A DNA stretch of 64,000 nucleotides from a virus. Both the position numbers and the translations under genes were made by a program. The notes under the pieces are model-generated. The model was not told the DNA's origin. It did no database searches and worked only from the letters and a program-made list of their open reading frames with translations. The stretch is from IMG/VR virus record IMGVR_UViG_3300005842_000010, positions 9,974-73,973 of that record. One strand, written 5' to 3'. Of the stretch, positions 1,012 to 9,340 are shown piece by piece (within the stretch, counting starts at the first letter, position 1; every line of letters begins with the position of its first letter).

Positions 1012-2019
1012 TTATGACACAGGCGCGACGGTTGGCAATGGGAAAGAGAGGCGGGCACCCTTCTTCAAATTTTGGACGGCCCACAGGGGTTGAAGGTTTT
1101 TGTATGAAAAACATTCTCGTTGCTGCGCCGGATCGCTCAAATCAAAAGAGCTAACAGGGCGCTTATGGTCAGCGTGCCAGCCATAGAAACCATATGTATC
1201 CCATGTCATTCCTGGCTGAAATTGAGATTCGATGTGGGCGCGCAATTCGGCGGTAGTGCAGCCTATCAGCTCCATGCTCTTTCCACACTTGGTCGCCCCG
1301 GACAGTAAACGACCGACCATCGTGCGAACGCTGGACAGCAGCCTCCAAAATGGATCTTTGGCTTTCTTGGCGCGGTATTTATTCCACGACGCTCGATCTG
1401 CTGCCTGGATTTCTTCCGGCGTGCGCTTCTTTCTTGGGCGGGCGAGAAGGCGTCGATATCGCTCCCTGTTTAGAATCCTCCACCTAGCACGGCGCTCAGG
1501 ATCTTGATTGTATCGCTTCCTGCGTTCTCGGTGCTTTTCACGATAAATTCTGTCGTAGGCAGCACGGGCTTCGACCATTTTACGATACTCAGATCCATCA
1601 CCAAGCTTCGCCGCAGCTTTTCTAGCTCGATGCCTTTCCCTTGTCCGAAATCGAAGTGTCTCTCTATGGCGTTCTCGATATCGTTTCTGGGCTGCGTCCG
1701 ACTGTTGTTTTATTATTTCCGGTGTGCGAGTTCCCTTTTTCCTCACCTCTTTAACTGTGAAGCCAAGACTTTCTCGGTACGCCTTATATTGACTGTTCTC
1801 TTTCGCCCTAACGATCTCTGGATTGTTAGTGCGCTGATTCTTTCTTCTTGCGCTGATTGCCGCGCGATTTTTGCGATACCACGCCTTTGACCATTCGTTG
1901 TGCTTTGCCCTTTGGCCTGCCTCCGAGTTTTCCGTTTCTTCTGGAGGCGATTTGCTTTGCTCTGCTATTGGACTGTCCTCCAAGCCTACCAAGGGTAACT
2001 GCATATTTGTGGATTGCAT
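1012..2019 (-). CDS. HNH-type homing endonuclease with long basic helical N-terminus
   Basis: The C-terminus LIGCTTAELRAHIESQFQPGMTWDTYG..WHADHKRPVSSFDL...FSYKNLQPLWAVQNLKKG is a familiar viral HNH-like signature. The N-terminus is R/K-rich. Confidence 0.85.
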   Translation of the reverse strand: MQSTNMQLPLVGLEDSPIAEQSKSPPEETENSEAGQRAKHNEWSKAWYRKNRAAISARRKNQRTNNPEIVRAKENSQYKAYRESLGFTVKEVRKKGTRTPEIIKQQSDAAQKRYRERHRETLRFRTRERHRARKAAAKLGDGSEYRKMVEARAAYDRIYREKHRERRKRYNQDPERRARWRILNRERYRRLLARPRKKRTPEEIQAADRASWNKYRAKKAKDPFWRLLSSVRTMVGRLLSGATKCGKSMELIGCTTAELRAHIESQFQPGMTWDTYGFYGWHADHKRPVSSFDLSDPAQQRECFSYKNLQPLWAVQNLKKGARLSFPLPTVAPVS

Positions 2020-2109: not shown

Positions 2110-4002
2110 TTAATACAAATTTCCGTAGGTTGGATTTTCGGTCTTACCAGTTACGATAGGCACAGCCTCATTCAAACCTTCCAGCCACCCACTATCAGAT
2201 GGGCAGCTTACTATTCCGGTTTGAGTTTGCGATACCAGTGATATGTCCTTCGTCACATTCGCCATCGTGCAAGCGAACGTAGGATCCAGTCTCGCCAACT
2301 CTTCGAGCTGGCCGAGCGTGCGCTGTTTCCGGTTGCTGGCGATCATGCCGGGATAGATCGAACCGCCACGAGGACCCGGCTTGCCGATATCCAGAGCGAG
2401 CAGGAACCGTCCGCTCGACTTGATGCCTTCGTAATCAGCCGCGCTCACGAGGTCATCAAAGAATTCGTGAGTGACGAGGTTGATCGTGACTCCGGACGGG
2501 AATTTCGGCTTGAACGAGCGCCAGCTAAACCCGAGGGCATTGCTGCCTTCGTCGATGACGATGCGGGCAATGTCGCCGAATTCCTGTCGGACGTAAGCGA
2601 CGAACGCGCTTTCCATGTTGGCCGCATAAACCGAGTCCGTGAACCAATCGATGGAATTGGCCATTTTACCCTGGCTCTTGCGCGAGCGATAGATGCGATA
2701 GTTCTCATCCAGCCACTCGTAGAAGTTGAGCGTGTTGTTTTGGAGGTCGCTCACCTGGCCGCAAGTGCGGAGCTGCTCGTAAACGCCAATCATGTTGGCT
2801 CGGTAAGCGACCACTTCGCCGCCAGTGCCGGGATCAGTGTTGGTTCCGGTAACCGTGAGGATCTGCTCAAGATTCTGCCATAGGGCCAAAGTCTGATTCG
2901 CGCTAATCGGTTTGCCGAAGAAGAAGCTCATCAGCCAACGGCGTTGAAACTCTTCCTCATCCTGGCGATTGCGCTCGGCAAGCGGGAGATCTCCGAACTG
3001 TTGGAAATACTTGTTGCTTTCCATCAGGCGAGCAAACACCTCTTTGTAAGTCGAGCTCACGCAGCGGGTTCGGCGCATGGTTTGCACCCAGTACGGCACG
3101 ACATGGCGAGGATCGAGCGTCGGCCGGTTCTGGCACCAGCTTTCAAAGTCGTTCACGTTATTGCCCATGGCGATGAGCAGGCCTGACGTCGGAGCCGAAT
3201 CAATAGGTGTGCTAGATCCTGAATTTTCGCTCGTTATTAGCACATCCACGTAGGACAAGTCGGCTGCTACTTCCGAGGCGAGCACCTTCCATACGCCACG
3301 GGTCGAGGCACCGTTCCCGGCACGGCCAAGAAGCAATACCCGGTCACGATCGAGGAACCATTGACGGTTCATGTCGAGGCCGTAGCGAGTTACAACCCGG
3401 ATCACCCGGTCACCAGCCGCTCCCAGTGCTTTATCGGCTGCTGTCAGCGGTCCAGTTACCAGTGCGGTATAGGCGCTATTGGCCTGGCCGGCTGTGATAG
3501 CCCAATAATCCTTGTTGATGATGCTGTCCTGGCGCGCTTTGACGAATGGATAAAGCAAGCCCGGCCCCCTGTCGATCTTCTCCATGTGCATCAGCGAACC
3601 AACGTCCTTCTGGGAACTCATCACCCAGTCGTACATACCGTTGATCTTGGTACCACAGGCAGCCATTTCGAATTGGGTCTGGAACCAGGCATCCATGTCA
3701 CCGAACAGCCCGTCGGGCCGAAACAGCGATTCAAGCTGGGCAGGTGTCAGGTGCGCTACGCTCGCCCGCGTGATGGTTCCGCACGTATCGTAGTTGTTGG
3801 CAACCACGACGTGGCAGGGAGTCTCTTGGAAGCGCGCGCTCGTGGAGGTGACGCCCATCAGGGCAAATACGAACGCCCCGCCGGCAATGGGTACCGCGTG
3901 GCTTAATATGCCCGGCAGCGCAAGCGCTACGAGGCCGGTGAGAATTAACACGCCCAGAATCAGGACGGTTAGCTTAAACGGGAAGGACCAGGTTTTTTTC
4001 AT
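2110..4002 (-). CDS. Putative major capsid protein with hydrophobic N-terminal leader
   Basis: The 630-aa gene follows the portal and scaffold-like genes and ends at a strong terminator. The first ~48 aa are a hydrophobic leader. The call is positional; the fold is not confirmed. Confidence 0.62.
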   Translation of the reverse strand: MKKTWSFPFKLTVLILGVLILTGLVALALPGILSHAVPIAGGAFVFALMGVTSTSARFQETPCHVVVANNYDTCGTITRASVAHLTPAQLESLFRPDGLFGDMDAWFQTQFEMAACGTKINGMYDWVMSSQKDVGSLMHMEKIDRGPGLLYPFVKARQDSIINKDYWAITAGQANSAYTALVTGPLTAADKALGAAGDRVIRVVTRYGLDMNRQWFLDRDRVLLLGRAGNGASTRGVWKVLASEVAADLSYVDVLITSENSGSSTPIDSAPTSGLLIAMGNNVNDFESWCQNRPTLDPRHVVPYWVQTMRRTRCVSSTYKEVFARLMESNKYFQQFGDLPLAERNRQDEEEFQRRWLMSFFFGKPISANQTLALWQNLEQILTVTGTNTDPGTGGEVVAYRANMIGVYEQLRTCGQVSDLQNNTLNFYEWLDENYRIYRSRKSQGKMANSIDWFTDSVYAANMESAFVAYVRQEFGDIARIVIDEGSNALGFSWRSFKPKFPSGVTINLVTHEFFDDLVSAADYEGIKSSGRFLLALDIGKPGPRGGSIYPGMIASNRKQRTLGQLEELARLDPTFACTMANVTKDISLVSQTQTGIVSCPSDSGWLEGLNEAVPIVTGKTENPTYGNLY

Positions 4003-4057: not shown

Positions 4058-5587
4058 CTACTTCCAGAGGACGGCCACAGCCCCTTCACCGAAGCTTTTT
4101 GCAGGTCCGGCATCAGGTTTTCCACCAGTCAACATATCAGACCCACTCGAAAGCGATGGTGGGCGCGCCGGTTCCGTTGGCCGGGCTGCTGGTTCTGGCT
4201 GTGGCGCTGGCTGCGGTTCAGGCTCTGGTTGTCGCACATTTGGATCGGCAGCAGGCTTACCATTGCCATTTTTGACGTATTTCTTCTTCGCCAGGGTGTC
4301 GCGACGCGCAATTTCGCGCTTTGCCCTGTCGGTAATATCGCTCTGAATAATCTCTTTCAGATCGCTCGCCTGGAGACAAATGCGCGTAGCTTTGAGATCG
4401 TCAAGCTTTTGCTGTTTTTGTGCATCGGTGCCCGGACCATCATAAATCTGCCGTTTCATCCGCTGCATATCGGCTATCGAGGTGAATTGCTTGCCGTTAA
4501 TGATCTGTTCCTCGGCTGGGCCGTTGAGGATTTCGTTCTCAGTGGCGTTTGAATAACGGAGAATCGCGGCATGCGCCCACCGTCTATCGGCATCGTTCGG
4601 ATCATTGGGATCGTGCCGGTGTGGATTGATTTGATACCCGTCCAGCTCGTCAACCTTTTCCAGCTCAGTCCTGATGGCTACCAGCTCCGCGGCAGCAGTT
4701 TTTAGGATATCGCAGGCGACTGGATCTGTCTCATCCACCTTGCCGACTGCCTCATTGCTCAGGTCCGGGCGCCCGCCACTGTCACGCAGAAGCTTGCCGA
4801 GCGCAGGATCGACGGCATCCACCATCGTAACAACAGCCTGCTCCACTCGTGATTTGATGACCGGTGCCGCTCGCTCGAATGCCTTCTCTGCCTGCTGCTT
4901 CTGAATCATCGGCTGCATCCGCTTTTCCCACAGTTCCTCGGCGCGCATCTCGACCTTGGCCTCGTCCATCGCCGCTCTATCGATTGCTGGCGCGTTTGCC
5001 TCATACCACTTGGTATGCTCGGCGTTGTCCCAATCGAATGTTTCATCCGGATTCTTTTCAAGCCAGTCATCTTGATAGGCGTAGGCCTTTTTGGAGAAAG
5101 CGATAAACTTCTCTGGCATGTCGGCCATTTTCGGATCGTTAGCTGCCATGTAGCGCAGGATCTTGAGATCGCGAGCATCATCGGCCGTCAATTCAGGTCC
5201 ATCCGAAGGCGCAGGCGATGGCGGTGCCAGTCGATCGGCCACGGCATCAGCCGCAACCCTGGCCGTACGCTGAATAGTGTCCTCGAGGCTTACGCTGACT
5301 GGCCTCGGTGCCGGGGCGGGTTCTGGGGCTGGCGCGGGCGCGGGTCGCGTTGGTGCCGGAGCGGGAGCAGGTTCAACGACAACCGGAGGCTCTGCTGGAG
5401 CAATAGCTGCCGGCGGCGCTGCAGGCCTAACAGCAGGCCGCGTATCTTCTCCCCACAACGCGGAGACAGCGCTTTTGGCCAAATCTTTGAGCTGCTCCGG
5501 CGTTGGCGGCGGCTCATTGCTGGGCTCAGGTGTTGGAATCTGCGGTTTCACCGGTTCCGGTGCCGTCCTGTGAACGATTTCGATCAT
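4058..5587 (-). CDS. Putative capsid scaffolding protein
   Basis: 509 aa with Pro/Ala-rich disordered ends and an acidic helical core, located immediately upstream of the putative capsid gene. Confidence 0.5.
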   Translation of the reverse strand: MIEIVHRTAPEPVKPQIPTPEPSNEPPPTPEQLKDLAKSAVSALWGEDTRPAVRPAAPPAAIAPAEPPVVVEPAPAPAPTRPAPAPAPEPAPAPRPVSVSLEDTIQRTARVAADAVADRLAPPSPAPSDGPELTADDARDLKILRYMAANDPKMADMPEKFIAFSKKAYAYQDDWLEKNPDETFDWDNAEHTKWYEANAPAIDRAAMDEAKVEMRAEELWEKRMQPMIQKQQAEKAFERAAPVIKSRVEQAVVTMVDAVDPALGKLLRDSGGRPDLSNEAVGKVDETDPVACDILKTAAAELVAIRTELEKVDELDGYQINPHRHDPNDPNDADRRWAHAAILRYSNATENEILNGPAEEQIINGKQFTSIADMQRMKRQIYDGPGTDAQKQQKLDDLKATRICLQASDLKEIIQSDITDRAKREIARRDTLAKKKYVKNGNGKPAADPNVRQPEPEPQPAPQPEPAARPTEPARPPSLSSGSDMLTGGKPDAGPAKSFGEGAVAVLWK

Positions 5588-5882
5588 ATTGTTTTGTTGC
5601 GTAAACTGGCTTTAGTTCAGATGCCGTAAAACTGTACTTCTCACTGTGCTGCGCCATCAACTCGGCGACGTCTTTGTAGAAAATGGCCTTTCTCAAACAT
5701 TCCCGAGATTCATCGTGCTGCGTCTCATCACCCGCCCCCAGGTTGGCAGACTTTGCCAGAGATTCAGCCGCCAGATCAAGCAAGTGCTGGCGGTAAAGCA
5801 GGGCCGGGGTTTGGCGCAGCCATTCGCGGATTTGCCGCTGCTGCTCCACCGCCATTAGTTTCGGCAAGAGCTGTATCATCAA
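5526..5882 (-). CDS. Hypothetical helical protein overlapping the portal 3' end and scaffold 5' end
   Basis: The 118-aa ORF has a protein-like helical composition and overlaps both neighbours in other frames. Confidence 0.6.
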   Translation of the reverse strand: MMIQLLPKLMAVEQQRQIREWLRQTPALLYRQHLLDLAAESLAKSANLGAGDETQHDESRECLRKAIFYKDVAELMAQHSEKYSFTASELKPVYATKQYDRNRSQDGTGTGETADSNT

Positions 5883-8313
5883 GTGTTGGTAGATTATTTA
5901 CTTTGAAAAGGACATCAATCTCTCTCTGGGTTAGCACCGCCTGGGTTTGCAACGCCTTCGTCGCTTCGAGTAATGGAGTGATTTCCTTTTGCACTTCGCC
6001 GTGAACGATCTTCACGACCATCTCGACCATAGCCTGCAGCTCTTGCTGCTTCTCGGCCGCCTGCTGTTCCGGGCTGGTATTGGGTGCCACATTCCTAAAT
6101 TTGAAATCCTTTTCGATGCCGGCCAGCCGGCAAATGCGGTTCAGCCACTCGAGCGCCTGATCCGGGCCGATGGACTGCATCAGCATCGGCACACTAAGAG
6201 ATTGCTGCAAAATTAAGGCCATTGCCTGGGCGGCTTTCGCGTTGTCCTGACGATCGTTGCCGTCGCGCGTGCTGATAAGCGACCAAATCGGCATGGCCGA
6301 GAGGTGCTTTTTGTTCACTTTATAGAGGCGCCACTGGTCCTTGGGAACGATCAATTCCTCCTTTTTATGAGCGAGGAATCCCAAGTCGTTAAGCTGCTGC
6401 TGCGTCAGCGGAACGTCGCTCGGCAAGTGAACCCAGAAATCTTCGTCGCCGTATTGCATCAGCCCGATATAAAGCTGCCGCTTCCAGGCATCGCGGGCGA
6501 TATCAACCGGCGTGGCGGTAAATTGAAGCCTCGAGCTGGTGCTCTGTTCGATGTTTCGAACTTCATCCACTCTCAGCTCGTGCGAGGCTGCCTGGGCAAT
6601 CTCCTGGCTGCTCATCACCAGCACGCGCTCGAGTATCTCAAGAATCGTCCGGAGCACGTTCGACATTTCGGCCACGTTGCCTCGAGGGAAATTGAAGCTT
6701 TGAACCACGTCGGGAATGCCTCGGTTACCGACCTGCAGCTTGAGCGCTTTCTTGCTCGAATAGCCGAAGATGTTCAGGAACCGGTAAAACTTTTCGCCGA
6801 GGTTCCTGAGCTGATCGATTGTGTCACGCGCACCATGCCGCTGGTTCGGGTCACCAGTCATTAGCTGGTCCTCGTCGATAAAAGTCAGGTTGGCCAGATT
6901 CTGCTTACACGTCAGAATGATCTGCGTGAGCATGTTGCTGAAATGATCTTGGAACGGGAGGATCTCCAGGCTGAGGCTTGCATTCTTCGTGCGGCTCTCA
7001 TCGGCGTCGTAGCCGTAGTAGATGACGGGATCATACGGTACCGGCGCCGCGTAGAGGATAGTGCATCCATCCCCGGCCACCATGAATCGGAACCACACCG
7101 GACAATCATAATCGCCGAGTCCATTCTCCTTCGGGATCAGCCGCTCCCAATACTCTGTAATCAGCACGCCCTGGTCGTTGTAATCCGTGCCGTAGTACAG
7201 GCTGCCGATCGCCTTCTCACGATCAACCGACGGACTGCCCACTGAAAGCTCTGCGCCAAGCACCGCCCCCTGTGGCATCTTCCGCACAGGCATGCACGTC
7301 AATTGGCACCCGGAATAGACTGAGGTGAAAAACAACCGGTTATCTGCGATCAAATCCGTGCTGCCTAGCGCTATCCGGTCCTTGTTCCAGTAGTTTCCAC
7401 TCAAGATCTCGCGATAGCGAGCGATGCGCCAGTAGCCGGCAAACTCACATCCATAGCCGTAATTGAGCGTGAAGGGCGGGTGCGCCAGGTCGTAGAACAT
7501 GCGCGATGGATGAGGCAGGTGATAATCGATACCCTCACGATCAGTCACTTTGATTTCATCATTCAGGTTTGCCGGGGTGCCGTCATCCTTCTTATGCCCG
7601 AGCGCCACGTCGATTTCATCGGCATACTTGCGCTGATCTTCCCAGTGCCACTCGTGCTTTGGAAATTGCAGGCACATCGAGTAATGCAACATTTTCAGCA
7701 CAGCCTGCTTCGTCACGTCGAAATAACCGTACTGCGTTGAAATCACCTGGACGCGATCGGTAAGCGCCTTGCATTTCAAGTTGAGCACTGTCGTTTGATC
7801 AACTGGCTCGTATTTGAAAAAAGGGGTCAGGCGGCGATCGTTCATTATCTTCGCCCACCGGATCGTGACGTACGATCGTACGAGCGGAACAAACACGTTG
7901 AAGAACGTCGGGACATTGAGACACTTTTTTAGCTGCTGAGTTTTGGGATCCATGACCTCAGTGATCATGTTTGTCAGCCCCCAACTCTGGAACGCTTTGT
8001 AAACTGACTCATCATTCGGGTCTTGATCGGCCAGTTGCTGCAGGAGGGTTTGCGTCACCTGGCGGAATGGAGTTTCCCAAGCGGTATCGAGCGCATGATA
8101 AACCCGGTAGTCAGCGAAATTGCGCTGCATGCCCTCTTGAATGCGGGAGCGTATTCGATTGATCAGTCTGCCGCGTCGGGCCGCGAGAGCTAGCGGGATA
8201 TCTTGATTATTGACATCGCCTTCCGGAACGGCGAGCGGATCGATGCCAAGCCACTTCTCTAAGTTTTCTGGCGTGAGGCCATACTTCTTTAAGCAATTTA
8301 AGTCGGCTGACAT
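5776..8313 (-). CDS. Putative portal protein
   Basis: 845 aa, mostly helical, with a Q/A/M-rich C-terminal region typical of podovirus-type portals. It is the first large gene of the head operon. Confidence 0.65.
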   Translation of the reverse strand: MSADLNCLKKYGLTPENLEKWLGIDPLAVPEGDVNNQDIPLALAARRGRLINRIRSRIQEGMQRNFADYRVYHALDTAWETPFRQVTQTLLQQLADQDPNDESVYKAFQSWGLTNMITEVMDPKTQQLKKCLNVPTFFNVFVPLVRSYVTIRWAKIMNDRRLTPFFKYEPVDQTTVLNLKCKALTDRVQVISTQYGYFDVTKQAVLKMLHYSMCLQFPKHEWHWEDQRKYADEIDVALGHKKDDGTPANLNDEIKVTDREGIDYHLPHPSRMFYDLAHPPFTLNYGYGCEFAGYWRIARYREILSGNYWNKDRIALGSTDLIADNRLFFTSVYSGCQLTCMPVRKMPQGAVLGAELSVGSPSVDREKAIGSLYYGTDYNDQGVLITEYWERLIPKENGLGDYDCPVWFRFMVAGDGCTILYAAPVPYDPVIYYGYDADESRTKNASLSLEILPFQDHFSNMLTQIILTCKQNLANLTFIDEDQLMTGDPNQRHGARDTIDQLRNLGEKFYRFLNIFGYSSKKALKLQVGNRGIPDVVQSFNFPRGNVAEMSNVLRTILEILERVLVMSSQEIAQAASHELRVDEVRNIEQSTSSRLQFTATPVDIARDAWKRQLYIGLMQYGDEDFWVHLPSDVPLTQQQLNDLGFLAHKKEELIVPKDQWRLYKVNKKHLSAMPIWSLISTRDGNDRQDNAKAAQAMALILQQSLSVPMLMQSIGPDQALEWLNRICRLAGIEKDFKFRNVAPNTSPEQQAAEKQQELQAMVEMVVKIVHGEVQKEITPLLEATKALQTQAVLTQREIDVLFKVNNLPTLDDTALAETNGGGAAAANPRMAAPNPGPALPPALA

Positions 8314-8315
8314 AG

Positions 8316-8708
8316 CTATATGGCGCGCTCAAGGAGTGAGTGATCAACCATGTCCCCGATACGTTCACCGAGTTCGATGATTGGACGCTCTATCTTAGGA
8401 ATGAGCCTATTGTTCGACTCCATTACCCAATCATACATGCCGCGCGTTTTCCCCTCGAGTGCTCTCATATCAAACGACGCGTGGAAAAAGGCATCCATGT
8501 CATCAAACAGTCCGCTGGGTCTAAATAGCATCTCGAGCTGCGCTGGAGTTAGCTGCGCAATTGACGCTTGAGTGATACTTCCGCAATCTGGCGTAAATCC
8601 AGGCGGAGTTATTACCTTCCAAACTATTGGCTCAAACTTTGGAATGAAGATAAGCGGAGCTATCGCAAGGCTTAACTTCGTGAAAAATGAACGACGGCTC
8701 TGCATCAC
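8316..8708 (-). CDS. Mini-paralog of the capsid N-terminal region with twin-arginine-like leader
   Basis: Residues 42-98 match residues 74-130 of the 630-aa protein at 38/57 identity (manual alignment). The N-terminus is MMQSRRSFFTKL. Confidence 0.8.
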   Translation of the reverse strand: MMQSRRSFFTKLSLAIAPLIFIPKFEPIVWKVITPPGFTPDCGSITQASIAQLTPAQLEMLFRPSGLFDDMDAFFHASFDMRALEGKTRGMYDWVMESNNRLIPKIERPIIELGERIGDMVDHSLLERAI

Positions 8709-8998
8709 TTGCCCATCTCGCGACGTTGCTTGATCAGCTCGGCGGGAGTCCTGGCCTTTTTCTTCGGAGTGGGCTTCGGAGTCTCTTCACCTTCATCGCC
8801 GCCAGCCGCGTCCAGGCTCATCACATGAAACCGATGCTCAAGCGGAGGCGTTTGCGTGTCGCGCACCAAGCCGCCCATCGCCATCTTTTCATCGTCGGTG
8901 TCCTTTACCCGCTTCAGCTTGGCGCGCACGTAATCGCCGCCTTTCGCAACCACTGGATGATGCGCCGGAAGCCTAACCTCGCAAATCGGGTCTGACAT
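8705..8998 (-). CDS. Hypothetical protein, first gene of the head operon
   Basis: The ATG at 8998 (MSDPICEVRL) is preceded by AAGGGG and a TTGACA promoter. The stop overlaps the next start. Confidence 0.65.
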   Translation of the reverse strand: MSDPICEVRLPAHHPVVAKGGDYVRAKLKRVKDTDDEKMAMGGLVRDTQTPPLEHRFHVMSLDAAGGDEGEETPKPTPKKKARTPAELIKQRREMGK

Positions 8999-9005
8999 AT
9001 AGCCC

Positions 9006-9043
9006 CTTATGCGCCTTGCGTGCGGCACTGTCAACGGTAATCT
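9006..9043. promoter_or_regulatory. Overlapping divergent sigma70-like promoters (head operon / groES-terL)
   Basis: Minus strand: TTGACA (9034-9029), 17 nt, CATAAG (9011-9006), 7 nt, ATG 8998. Plus strand: TTGCGT (9016-9021), 16 nt, TAATCT (9038-9043), 6 nt, ATG 9050. Confidence 0.55.
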
Positions 9044-9049
9044 CAATAC

Positions 9050-9340
9050 ATGAACATAACCAAAGTATTAGGAGATCGCGTACTCATCGAACCTCTACCC
9101 GTCGAACAGGTCAGCGCCGGCGGAATAGAACTGCCTCAATCCGTCCGTGGAAAACAGTCTGTCGGCATCGTGCGGATGGTTGGCGAAGGCACTGGCGACC
9201 CATCCATGCGTGCGCTCATGGCCGAAATTGCAATCGGGCAGACTGTCAGGACAAATATCAATATGGGGAGCGTCGAGGTTACATTTAATGGCGCAGAGTG
9301 CCGGATTCACTCGGTTCGAGACGTTGAAATGATTCTGTGA
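9050..9340 (+). CDS. groES: Co-chaperonin GroES (Cpn10)
   Basis: 96 aa with LGDRVLIEP, mobile loop SAGGIELP, GIVRMVGEG and a C-terminal RDVEMIL, which together are the Cpn10 signature. Confidence 0.9.
   Translation: MNITKVLGDRVLIEPLPVEQVSAGGIELPQSVRGKQSVGIVRMVGEGTGDPSMRALMAEIAIGQTVRTNINMGSVEVTFNGAECRIHSVRDVEMIL

Follow-up and report, generated by a model that had tools for sequence, protein, structure and literature searches.

A small optional gene lies directly 5' of the portal gene in a soil phage, and it encodes a leader followed by a copy of the N-terminal arm of the capsid protein. Comparison of sequences supports well the view that it is an accessory, moron-like gene that combines an export-type leader, a copy of the capsid arm maintained by selection, and a conserved 25-aa tail. 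The window, as we call the whole stretch of 64,000 nucleotides that was analysed, is part of a 79,434-base IMG/VR virus record, and the genome-wide searches covered ~79 kb. The features that concern us here are the following.

2110..4002, minus strand: major capsid protein gene, a 630-aa ORF with a predicted HK97 fold; the copied block is at nt 3613-3783.
4058..5587, minus strand: putative scaffolding protein gene, 509 aa, Pro/Ala/Glu-rich, between the portal and capsid genes.
5776..8313, minus strand: portal gene, with a weak SU10_portal match; its position between terminase and scaffold is conserved in ~70 related loci.
8316..8705, minus strand: mini-protein gene, from the ORF list and the DNA; 129 aa from ATG 8705.
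8319..8414, minus strand: C-terminal tail of the mini-protein, ~32 aa; the last 25 aa are best conserved against the ortholog P0122 (19/25).
8415..8585, minus strand: payload block of the mini-protein, a diverged copy of capsid aa 74-130 of the N-terminal arm.
8595..8705, minus strand: leader of the mini-protein, ~aa 1-37, with SRRSFF, a short hydrophobic stretch and a conserved PLIFIPKFEP..WK.
8705..9046, minus strand: p113 gene, with orthologs in L006, L008, L009, L011, L012 and L014.

A characteristic of the mini-protein gene is its tight fit between its neighbours. The ORF list has it at 8316..8708 on the minus strand, which is where the first-pass annotation had put it, with a GTG start at 8708 and a length of 130 aa. 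One codon inside the GTG is ATG 8705, which shares one base with the TGA stop of p113 (TGATG), and because of this overlap the likely product has 129 aa. At the other end, the stop TAG occupies 8316-8318 and the portal ATG 8313 begins 2 nt further on, so the gene is indeed upstream of the portal, as annotated. Translation of the mini-protein is likely coupled to both neighbours, p113 and portal. Because the gene is part of the late head operon and its start and stop overlap or adjoin those of its neighbours, the mini-protein is probably made alongside the head proteins. On the minus strand between 5500 and 9500, no sigma-70-like promoter or intrinsic-terminator-like site was found, in a scan that covered this one promoter type. 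The GC3 of the mini-protein gene is 0.52 versus 0.66-0.68 in the p113, portal, and capsid genes. No family is assigned to the mini-protein by Pfam, PHROGs, NCBIfam or PADLOC; in PADLOC-DB 2.0 (2023), which need not include assembly blockers, the mini-protein, P0122, P0138, P0130, and P0142 were unmatched at E up to 1.

The gene is present in more than one record. An identical mini-protein is recorded on 6 contigs from several sources, and a 99.9% identical DNA copy of the gene lies on an independent metagenome contig (L173). The identity between L173 and the window is 99.9% over 7833-8905, and L173:1-489 is without any match to the window; this mismatch is due either to recombination with a breakpoint within p113 or to chimeric assembly. 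As for p113 itself, comparison of orthologs indicates that its true start is probably ATG 8998. The protein carries an LPAHHPAV-like motif and is always encoded directly 5' of the portal gene in relatives; it has no family match in Pfam, PHROGs or PADLOC.

The identity of the copied protein rests on structure prediction. The 630-aa protein has >360 homologs, none of them with a family name, and searches of Pfam and PHROGs with it are blank. An AF2 model built on 24 homologs matched phage capsids and encapsulins exclusively. The Foldseek matches include VP1 (9in6, E 2.6e-8), crAss001 (7qoh), P1, and SU10, and VIA-align gave Z 11.7 for VP1 and 10-11 for crAss001. According to this model, ORF 2110-4002 is an HK97-fold major capsid protein, and the name 'capsid' that it was first given is correct. 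The first confident core strand of the model starts at ~aa 166, and residues 51-162 are low-confidence helices; most solved capsids align from ~model residue 104-120 on, which is ~residue 20-50 of those chains. From the start of the core strand together with the starts of these alignments, aa 74-130, which the mini-protein copies, belong to the N-terminal arm.

The capsid ORF has a further peculiarity at its N-terminus. Its aa 1-50 (3853-4002, minus strand) resemble one or two transmembrane helices and precede the conserved start of the capsid family (..TSTSxRFQETPC). Many homologs carry an open, hydrophobic, and poorly conserved extension here, others begin at the conserved motif, and the extension of P0049 is hydrophilic. 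A membrane-like N-terminus is odd on a major capsid protein.

In ~70 related loci, the head module is ordered as large terminase (on the divergent strand), GroES-like, p113, portal, scaffold-like, and capsid genes. The scaffold candidate holds the same position in relatives at an identity of 20-44%; it has no family match in Pfam or PHROGs, and thus its name derives from position and composition. The GroES/Cpn10-like co-chaperonin gene (9050-9340, plus strand; Pfam E 1e-10) lies between p113 and the large terminase and has orthologs in L011 and L014. It recalls gp31 of T4, which is needed for folding the T4 capsid protein. The ORF that closely follows the capsid gene (1012-2019, minus strand) encodes a basic protein of 335 aa, the C-terminus of which is HNH / endonuclease VII-like; this ORF overlaps the next one by 47 bases, and its location varies among relatives, as for a mobile nuclease. 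In one related locus (L065:6149-7909), the capsid gene seems split, with an N-terminal match at 6149-6346, aa 273-608 at 6878-7909, and no match between; this may be due to an intervening element or a broken gene.

The payload block is homologous to the capsid arm. BLASTP of the mini-protein against the 630-aa ORF gives 38/57 identities, ungapped, with E 4e-25, and exactly reproduces the identity to capsid aa 74-130 that had been counted in the first-pass annotation. A profile-profile comparison (hhalign) aligns mini-protein aa 24-101 with capsid aa 58-138 at a probability of 99.7% and E 2e-26. At the nucleotide level, 109/171 bases are identical between 8415-8585 and 3613-3783, and these are the only two copies of the arm block in the whole genome. 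The payload retains the first-helix motif (around LTPAQLE..LFRP) and GMYDW; the former is family-wide and is the most conserved portion of the capsid arm. As the homology is confined to capsid aa 58-138 and the HK97 core (spine helix, P and A domains) is missing, the mini-protein cannot be a shell subunit.

The leader and the tail are foreign to the capsid protein. The match to the capsid profile ends at mini-protein aa 101 with none in the tail, and the idea that the tail continues the capsid homology was rejected for this reason. A search for a source of the leader or the tail elsewhere in the 79-kb genome returned chance-level matches only. The two ends of the protein thus differ from the capsid, as had been noticed at first sight, and neither has a second copy in that genome.

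How old is the copy? Over the 57 codons shared by the mini-protein and capsid genes, identities at positions 1, 2, and 3 are 45, 42, and 22 of 57. The pS between the blocks is 0.80, at which synonymous sites are saturated, and dN is 0.29; this comparison of the paralogs, a dN/dS-type check that had been suggested earlier, indicates that the duplication is not recent. The mini-protein copy is changed at 5/14 family-invariant and 4/15 nearly invariant capsid residues, and the fraction changed is similar at variable sites; it is no longer evolving as a capsid protein. Recent origin from the resident capsid gene was considered and rejected, as the arm copy of the window is about as distant from the resident capsid as from many others of the clade (59-68%). 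Integrity of the ORF was likewise rejected as a strong argument for selection, because the probability of finding no stop is ~0.2 under neutral substitution to the observed divergence.

The decisive evidence comes from relatives, first of all an ortholog. An exhaustive search of 1.84 billion protein representatives brought up P0122, a 138-aa protein (E 5e-38, ~60% identity) that aligns over the full length with all indels in-frame. The identity between P0122 and the mini-protein is 26/41 in the leader, 34/57 in the block, and 19/25 in the last 25 aa of the tail. Both proteins have the same derived changes at capsid-invariant positions (EG for CG-T, MES for MSS), and they therefore descend from one small gene that had already diverged. 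A word-indexed protein search with the mini-protein found nothing beyond the mini-protein itself, scans of viral contigs for P0122 and P0125 had no match, and a scan of metagenomes returned just the identical copy of the mini-protein and capsid genes. It is well supported by these alignments that the mini-protein is an old, diverged, yet selected copy and not a decaying remnant.

The mini-protein and P0122 belong to a wider group. Distant small proteins of 83-134 aa (P0125, P0130, P0137, P0139, P0142, and P0144) consist of a leader, which has RRxF[FL] at its start and then a stretch that is short and hydrophobic, and the same arm block. What they preserve of the block is chiefly the LTPxQL..LFxP first-helix motif and [ML]YD[WF]. 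Within the block, each of them is nearer to the capsid consensus than to other small proteins, and their arm blocks are old copies rather than new duplications. P0125 and P0142 are found on contigs of 66,004 and 77,506 bases, as are the capsids P0069 and P0049, respectively; this suggests, but does not prove, that they come from phages of the same capsid family.

The leader can also be found without the arm block. Leaders of the same subtype as that of the window (RRxFF, hydrophobic stretch, PLIFIPKFEP, WK) are joined to unrelated remainders in P0138, P0143, L084/L085 (an ORF of 88 aa), L171 (85 aa), and L199 (69 aa). An alignment of leaders from unrelated phages has the invariant columns R4, R5, F7, L11, P17, F20, P22, K23, F24, E25, P26, W29, and K30, and the shared pattern is RRxFF, a hydrophobic stretch, P-x-[IV]-F-[IL]-P-K-F-E-P, and W-K. 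The genomic location is variable as well. In L084, which has a lambda-like head module, the leader gene is flanked by the genes of the small and the large terminase, and in L083 and L027 family members are far from head genes.

In an unrelated and complete 56-kb phage (G001), one of these remainders turns out to be a self-copy. A protein of 544 aa is encoded 9 kb from P0138 and has a large family of its own; residues 41-97 of P0138 copy its aa 5-61 at 47% identity. The AF2 model of the 544-aa protein matches only phage capsids (N4 9e99, E 5e-6; P22; cyanophage A4), and by this model it is an HK97-fold capsid protein. No sequence relation is seen between it and the capsid family of the window. 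The small gene occurs in 1/80 loci of this second capsid family, and that record is L083. Taken together, the window and G001 show one leader fused to copies of the N-arm of the phage's own capsid protein, in capsid families that are unrelated to each other. The existence of a modular family, in which a conserved leader is combined with a piece of the phage's own virion protein, is well supported by the sequences compared. There is a counter-case: an ORF of 85 aa with one arginine (SRSFF) at L171:9998-10255, in the complete 76,955-base phage G004. No second copy of its payload was detected in the complete genome, and thus not every leader protein is a self-copy. In the literature, no published description was found of a gene family that combines such a leader with a copy of the capsid arm.

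These relatives bear on one alternative, namely that the gene is a non-functional leftover of partial duplication or recombination of the capsid gene, kept open by chance or for translational coupling to the portal. It would agree with the absence from relatives, with a GC3 lower than in the flanking genes, with the loss of invariant capsid residues evenly across conserved and variable sites, and with an ORF integrity that by itself is not significant. Nevertheless, a leftover is highly improbable: the ortholog P0122 is full length, conserves leader and tail, and has no indel that breaks the frame, the leader is common to other phage families, several distant relatives share the same architecture, and protein identity is still 67% where synonymous sites are saturated. 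The first-pass annotation had reasoned that absence or degeneration in relatives, with dN/dS near 1, would mark a recent duplication remnant. The absence from most relatives is borne out, but the gene is not a recent remnant. Its other suggestion, selective retention in keeping with a conserved interaction surface, gains support from the ortholog, from the distant relatives of the same architecture, and from the concentration of differences at third codon positions.

Residues 3-10 of the mini-protein (S-R-R-S-F-F-T-K) fit the S/T-R-R-x-F-L-K-like Tat consensus. A twin-arginine leader had been annotated, which is right at the level of the motif: the window has SRRSFF, and nearly all small-protein relatives keep the motif. 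The form RRxF[FL] is retained in P0122, P0130, P0137, P0138, P0139, P0142, P0143, P0144, L084, L027, and L199. The Tat models TIGR01409 and PF10518, which are very short and insensitive, do not match the leader of the window. With TIGR01409 (cut-off 16.7), P0130 scores above the cut-off at 19.3 and P0137 reaches 14.2; with PF10518 (cut-off 22.7), the matches of L199, L084, and P0130 are all far below threshold. The leader of the window has no AxA site, as its hydrophobic stretch continues into I-P-K-F-E-P, and a membrane anchor would normally be longer than this stretch. Only the P0137/L027 leader subtype has an AxA-like site, which follows its hydrophobic stretch. Because there is no model score, no AxA site, and an extra conserved segment, we call the leader 'export-type' and regard it as a putative Tat signal. 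The possibility that it is the diverged hydrophobic N-terminal extension of the capsid ORF was rejected, since the same leader heads unrelated payloads.

If the leader were a working Tat signal, either cleaved or serving as an anchor, the arm copy would be displayed in the periplasm. There it could cause superinfection exclusion by acting on incoming phages, for instance through binding of ejected internal proteins whose usual contact is the inside of the capsid, or it could act on an envelope target. The conservation of RRxF[FL] in nearly all family members is in line with such export, and so are the score of P0130 above the TIGR01409 cut-off, the sub-threshold PF10518 matches of L199, L084, and P0130, and the AxA-like site of some relatives (P0137 type). 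We consider it unlikely, however, given that the leader of the window has neither an AxA site nor an HMM match, that L171 has a single arginine, that the gene belongs to a late head operon and is without a promoter-like site of its own whereas exclusion genes are usually elsewhere, and that no periplasmic partner of the capsid arm is known.

The distribution of the gene among relatives shows how dispensable it is. Of 80 related viral loci (capsid identity 29-73%), none has another copy of the arm block less than 10 kb from its capsid gene, and a profile of the small-protein family run over related loci yielded only a weak, highly diverged candidate in L027/L029. In L006, L008, L009, L011, and L014, the stop of the p113 ortholog touches or overlaps the start of portal and the two genes are direct neighbours, and in L002-L005 the gap between terminase and portal is smaller than the 390-base mini-protein gene. 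From the adjacency of p113 and portal in relatives it follows that the mini-protein gene was inserted precisely where p113 and portal meet. By this comparison of loci, the gene is accessory and not a core part of the head. The candidate in L027 (15914-16198) and L029 (13711-13995) is an ORF of 94 aa; its leader contains RRSFF and is of the 'APEIAF' subtype, and its C-terminus carries MFDFL. The gene that directly follows it encodes an 811-aa VWA-domain protein, the capsid gene of this related phage lies ~4 kb before it, and the ORF may be a very diverged family member.

A role in the phage's own assembly has to be weighed against this distribution. The mini-protein could be a non-essential helper, such as a membrane-anchored nucleator, a portal-vertex adaptor or a capsid-size modulator, that docks on capsid protein or scaffold via the arm copy. 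The latter two roles had been put forward in the first-pass annotation, and the position directly before the portal gene, the tight translational coupling, and the conserved tail speak for such a helper. Yet the gene is absent from 80/80 related loci that have the same portal-scaffold-capsid module, members in other phages are placed differently (L084 between terminase subunits, L083/L027 far from head genes), and 5/14 capsid-invariant residues are lost, which makes such a helper very unlikely. A portal-vertex adaptor or another core assembly role in particular does not hold up well, as none of the 80 loci has a copy and p113 abuts portal in five. An export-type leader also fits poorly with an adaptor in the virion.

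The best explanation, which we put forward tentatively and hold to be somewhat less than evenly probable, is that the mini-protein is a leader-directed mimic of the capsid arm that tethers or blocks capsid building blocks and serves conflict between phages. It would work in the following steps. The leader would direct the mini-protein to the inner membrane or to the Tat receptor. The arm copy would then fill the site, on the scaffold or on an adjacent capsid subunit, that normally takes up a capsid N-arm; that it could occupy this receiving site is suggested by the kept first-helix motif and GMYDW. In HK97-fold capsids, the N-arm touches neighbouring subunits and, in several systems, the scaffold. 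Once the site is occupied, capsid building blocks would be tethered, capped or blocked. The gene would thereby act in conflict, for example by interfering with the assembly of related co-infecting phages, and not in assembly of its own head; a role in conflict is favoured over that of a necessary head part because the gene is optional and sporadic. Since the copied motif is the most conserved in the arm and the scaffold is poorly conserved (20-44%), the likeliest partner would be a conserved surface of the capsid protein itself.

There are arguments against the arm mimic. If export were real, the arm copy would be in the periplasm and separated from capsid assembly. A protein of this kind that is made late, alongside the phage's own capsid protein, would bring a risk of self-poisoning, and self-immunity is unaccounted for. 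The lack of a Tat model score and of an AxA site in the leader, the leader protein of G004 that is no self-copy, and the empty PADLOC search also weigh against it. Moreover, with 5/14 invariant and 4/15 nearly invariant residues lost, the arm copy may no longer fit the capsid site.

The partner of the arm copy could also be a host protein. Capsid proteins are common triggers of abortive-infection systems, and the mini-protein might be a decoy that binds a sensor of unassembled capsid N-arms and holds it untriggered at the membrane. This is quite unlikely. Late co-expression with the capsid gene, the presence of the most conserved arm motif in the payload, and an accessory, sporadic distribution that resembles counter-defence genes all point in its direction, but a sensor is neither known nor present in the neighbourhood, a faithful mimic should set the sensor off rather than blunt it, and the strong conservation of the leader is left unexplained.

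The arm mimic can be extended from the single gene to the family. In this broader and rather doubtful reading, a modular 'self-mimic' family would combine the leader with short copied pieces of the phages' own capsid or other virion proteins, joined independently in lineages that are unrelated, and would exploit contact motifs conserved in the virion proteins of kin to sabotage, sort or hide capsid building blocks. Such proteins would amount, again doubtfully, to kin-targeted interference with assembly or to a decoy, of an undescribed form. If true, phages turn fragments of their own structural proteins into tools, with a shared leader placed on whichever capsid arm the lineage uses, and these tools would be a new class among the ways in which phages compete with each other or evade sensing by the host. 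A piece that is copied and kept would also be a sequence-based pointer to a critical contact surface of the capsid. The question raised is why an export-type signal is present on the mimic of a cytoplasmic assembly element.

The mini-protein can be compared with several known systems. Its payload is homologous to the pre-core segment (aa 58-138) of an HK97 capsid N-arm, for which the nearest solved examples are VP1 (9in6), crAss001 (7qof/7qoh), and SU10 (7z45). In contrast to a capsid N-arm, it is altered at 5/14 invariant residues and is flanked by a foreign leader and tail. Its N-terminus is similar to a Tat signal peptide in having S-R-R-x-F-F followed by a short, mildly hydrophobic stretch, and one distant relative is above the TIGR01409 cut-off. 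It differs from ordinary Tat signals in that it is unscored by the Tat models, lacks an AxA cleavage site, and extends into PLIFIPKFEP..WK, which they do not have. Uncleaved Tat signal anchors do exist, for example in Rieske proteins.

In tailed phages, additional genes known as morons are found among the conserved late genes, between which they were inserted. The mini-protein gene resembles them in its placement between genes that are adjacent in relatives, in a composition unlike that of its flanks, and in its sporadic distribution. It differs from a moron in that the scan for sigma-70-like promoters and intrinsic terminators showed no site of its own, and in that its translation is likely coupled to both neighbours. 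A mimic of a head-assembly element is known from the satellite SaPI1, in which CpmB imitates the scaffold and competes with the helper scaffold for a site on the capsid protein. By description, CpmB and the mini-protein are alike as small proteins that copy a short interaction segment of head assembly and could compete for a binding site. CpmB, however, mimics the C-terminus of the scaffold, is encoded by a satellite, and has no export-type leader, whereas the mini-protein copies the capsid arm and is encoded by a phage.

The proposed role has a parallel in the tail assembly blocker Tab, with which a Pseudomonas prophage prevents its competitors from assembling virions (Patel et al. 2024, PMC10884400). 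Tab acts on tail assembly via the tape measure protein, is expressed constitutively from the prophage, and is paired with an anti-Tab (PMC10884400). No similarity between the mini-protein and Tab was found with PADLOC. Tab thus differs in its tail target, in constitutive prophage expression, and in having an anti-Tab partner, and it is not described as a self-copy (PMC10884400). What Tab would have in common with the mini-protein is that an accessory phage protein blocks the virion assembly of rivals, which is the role proposed here.
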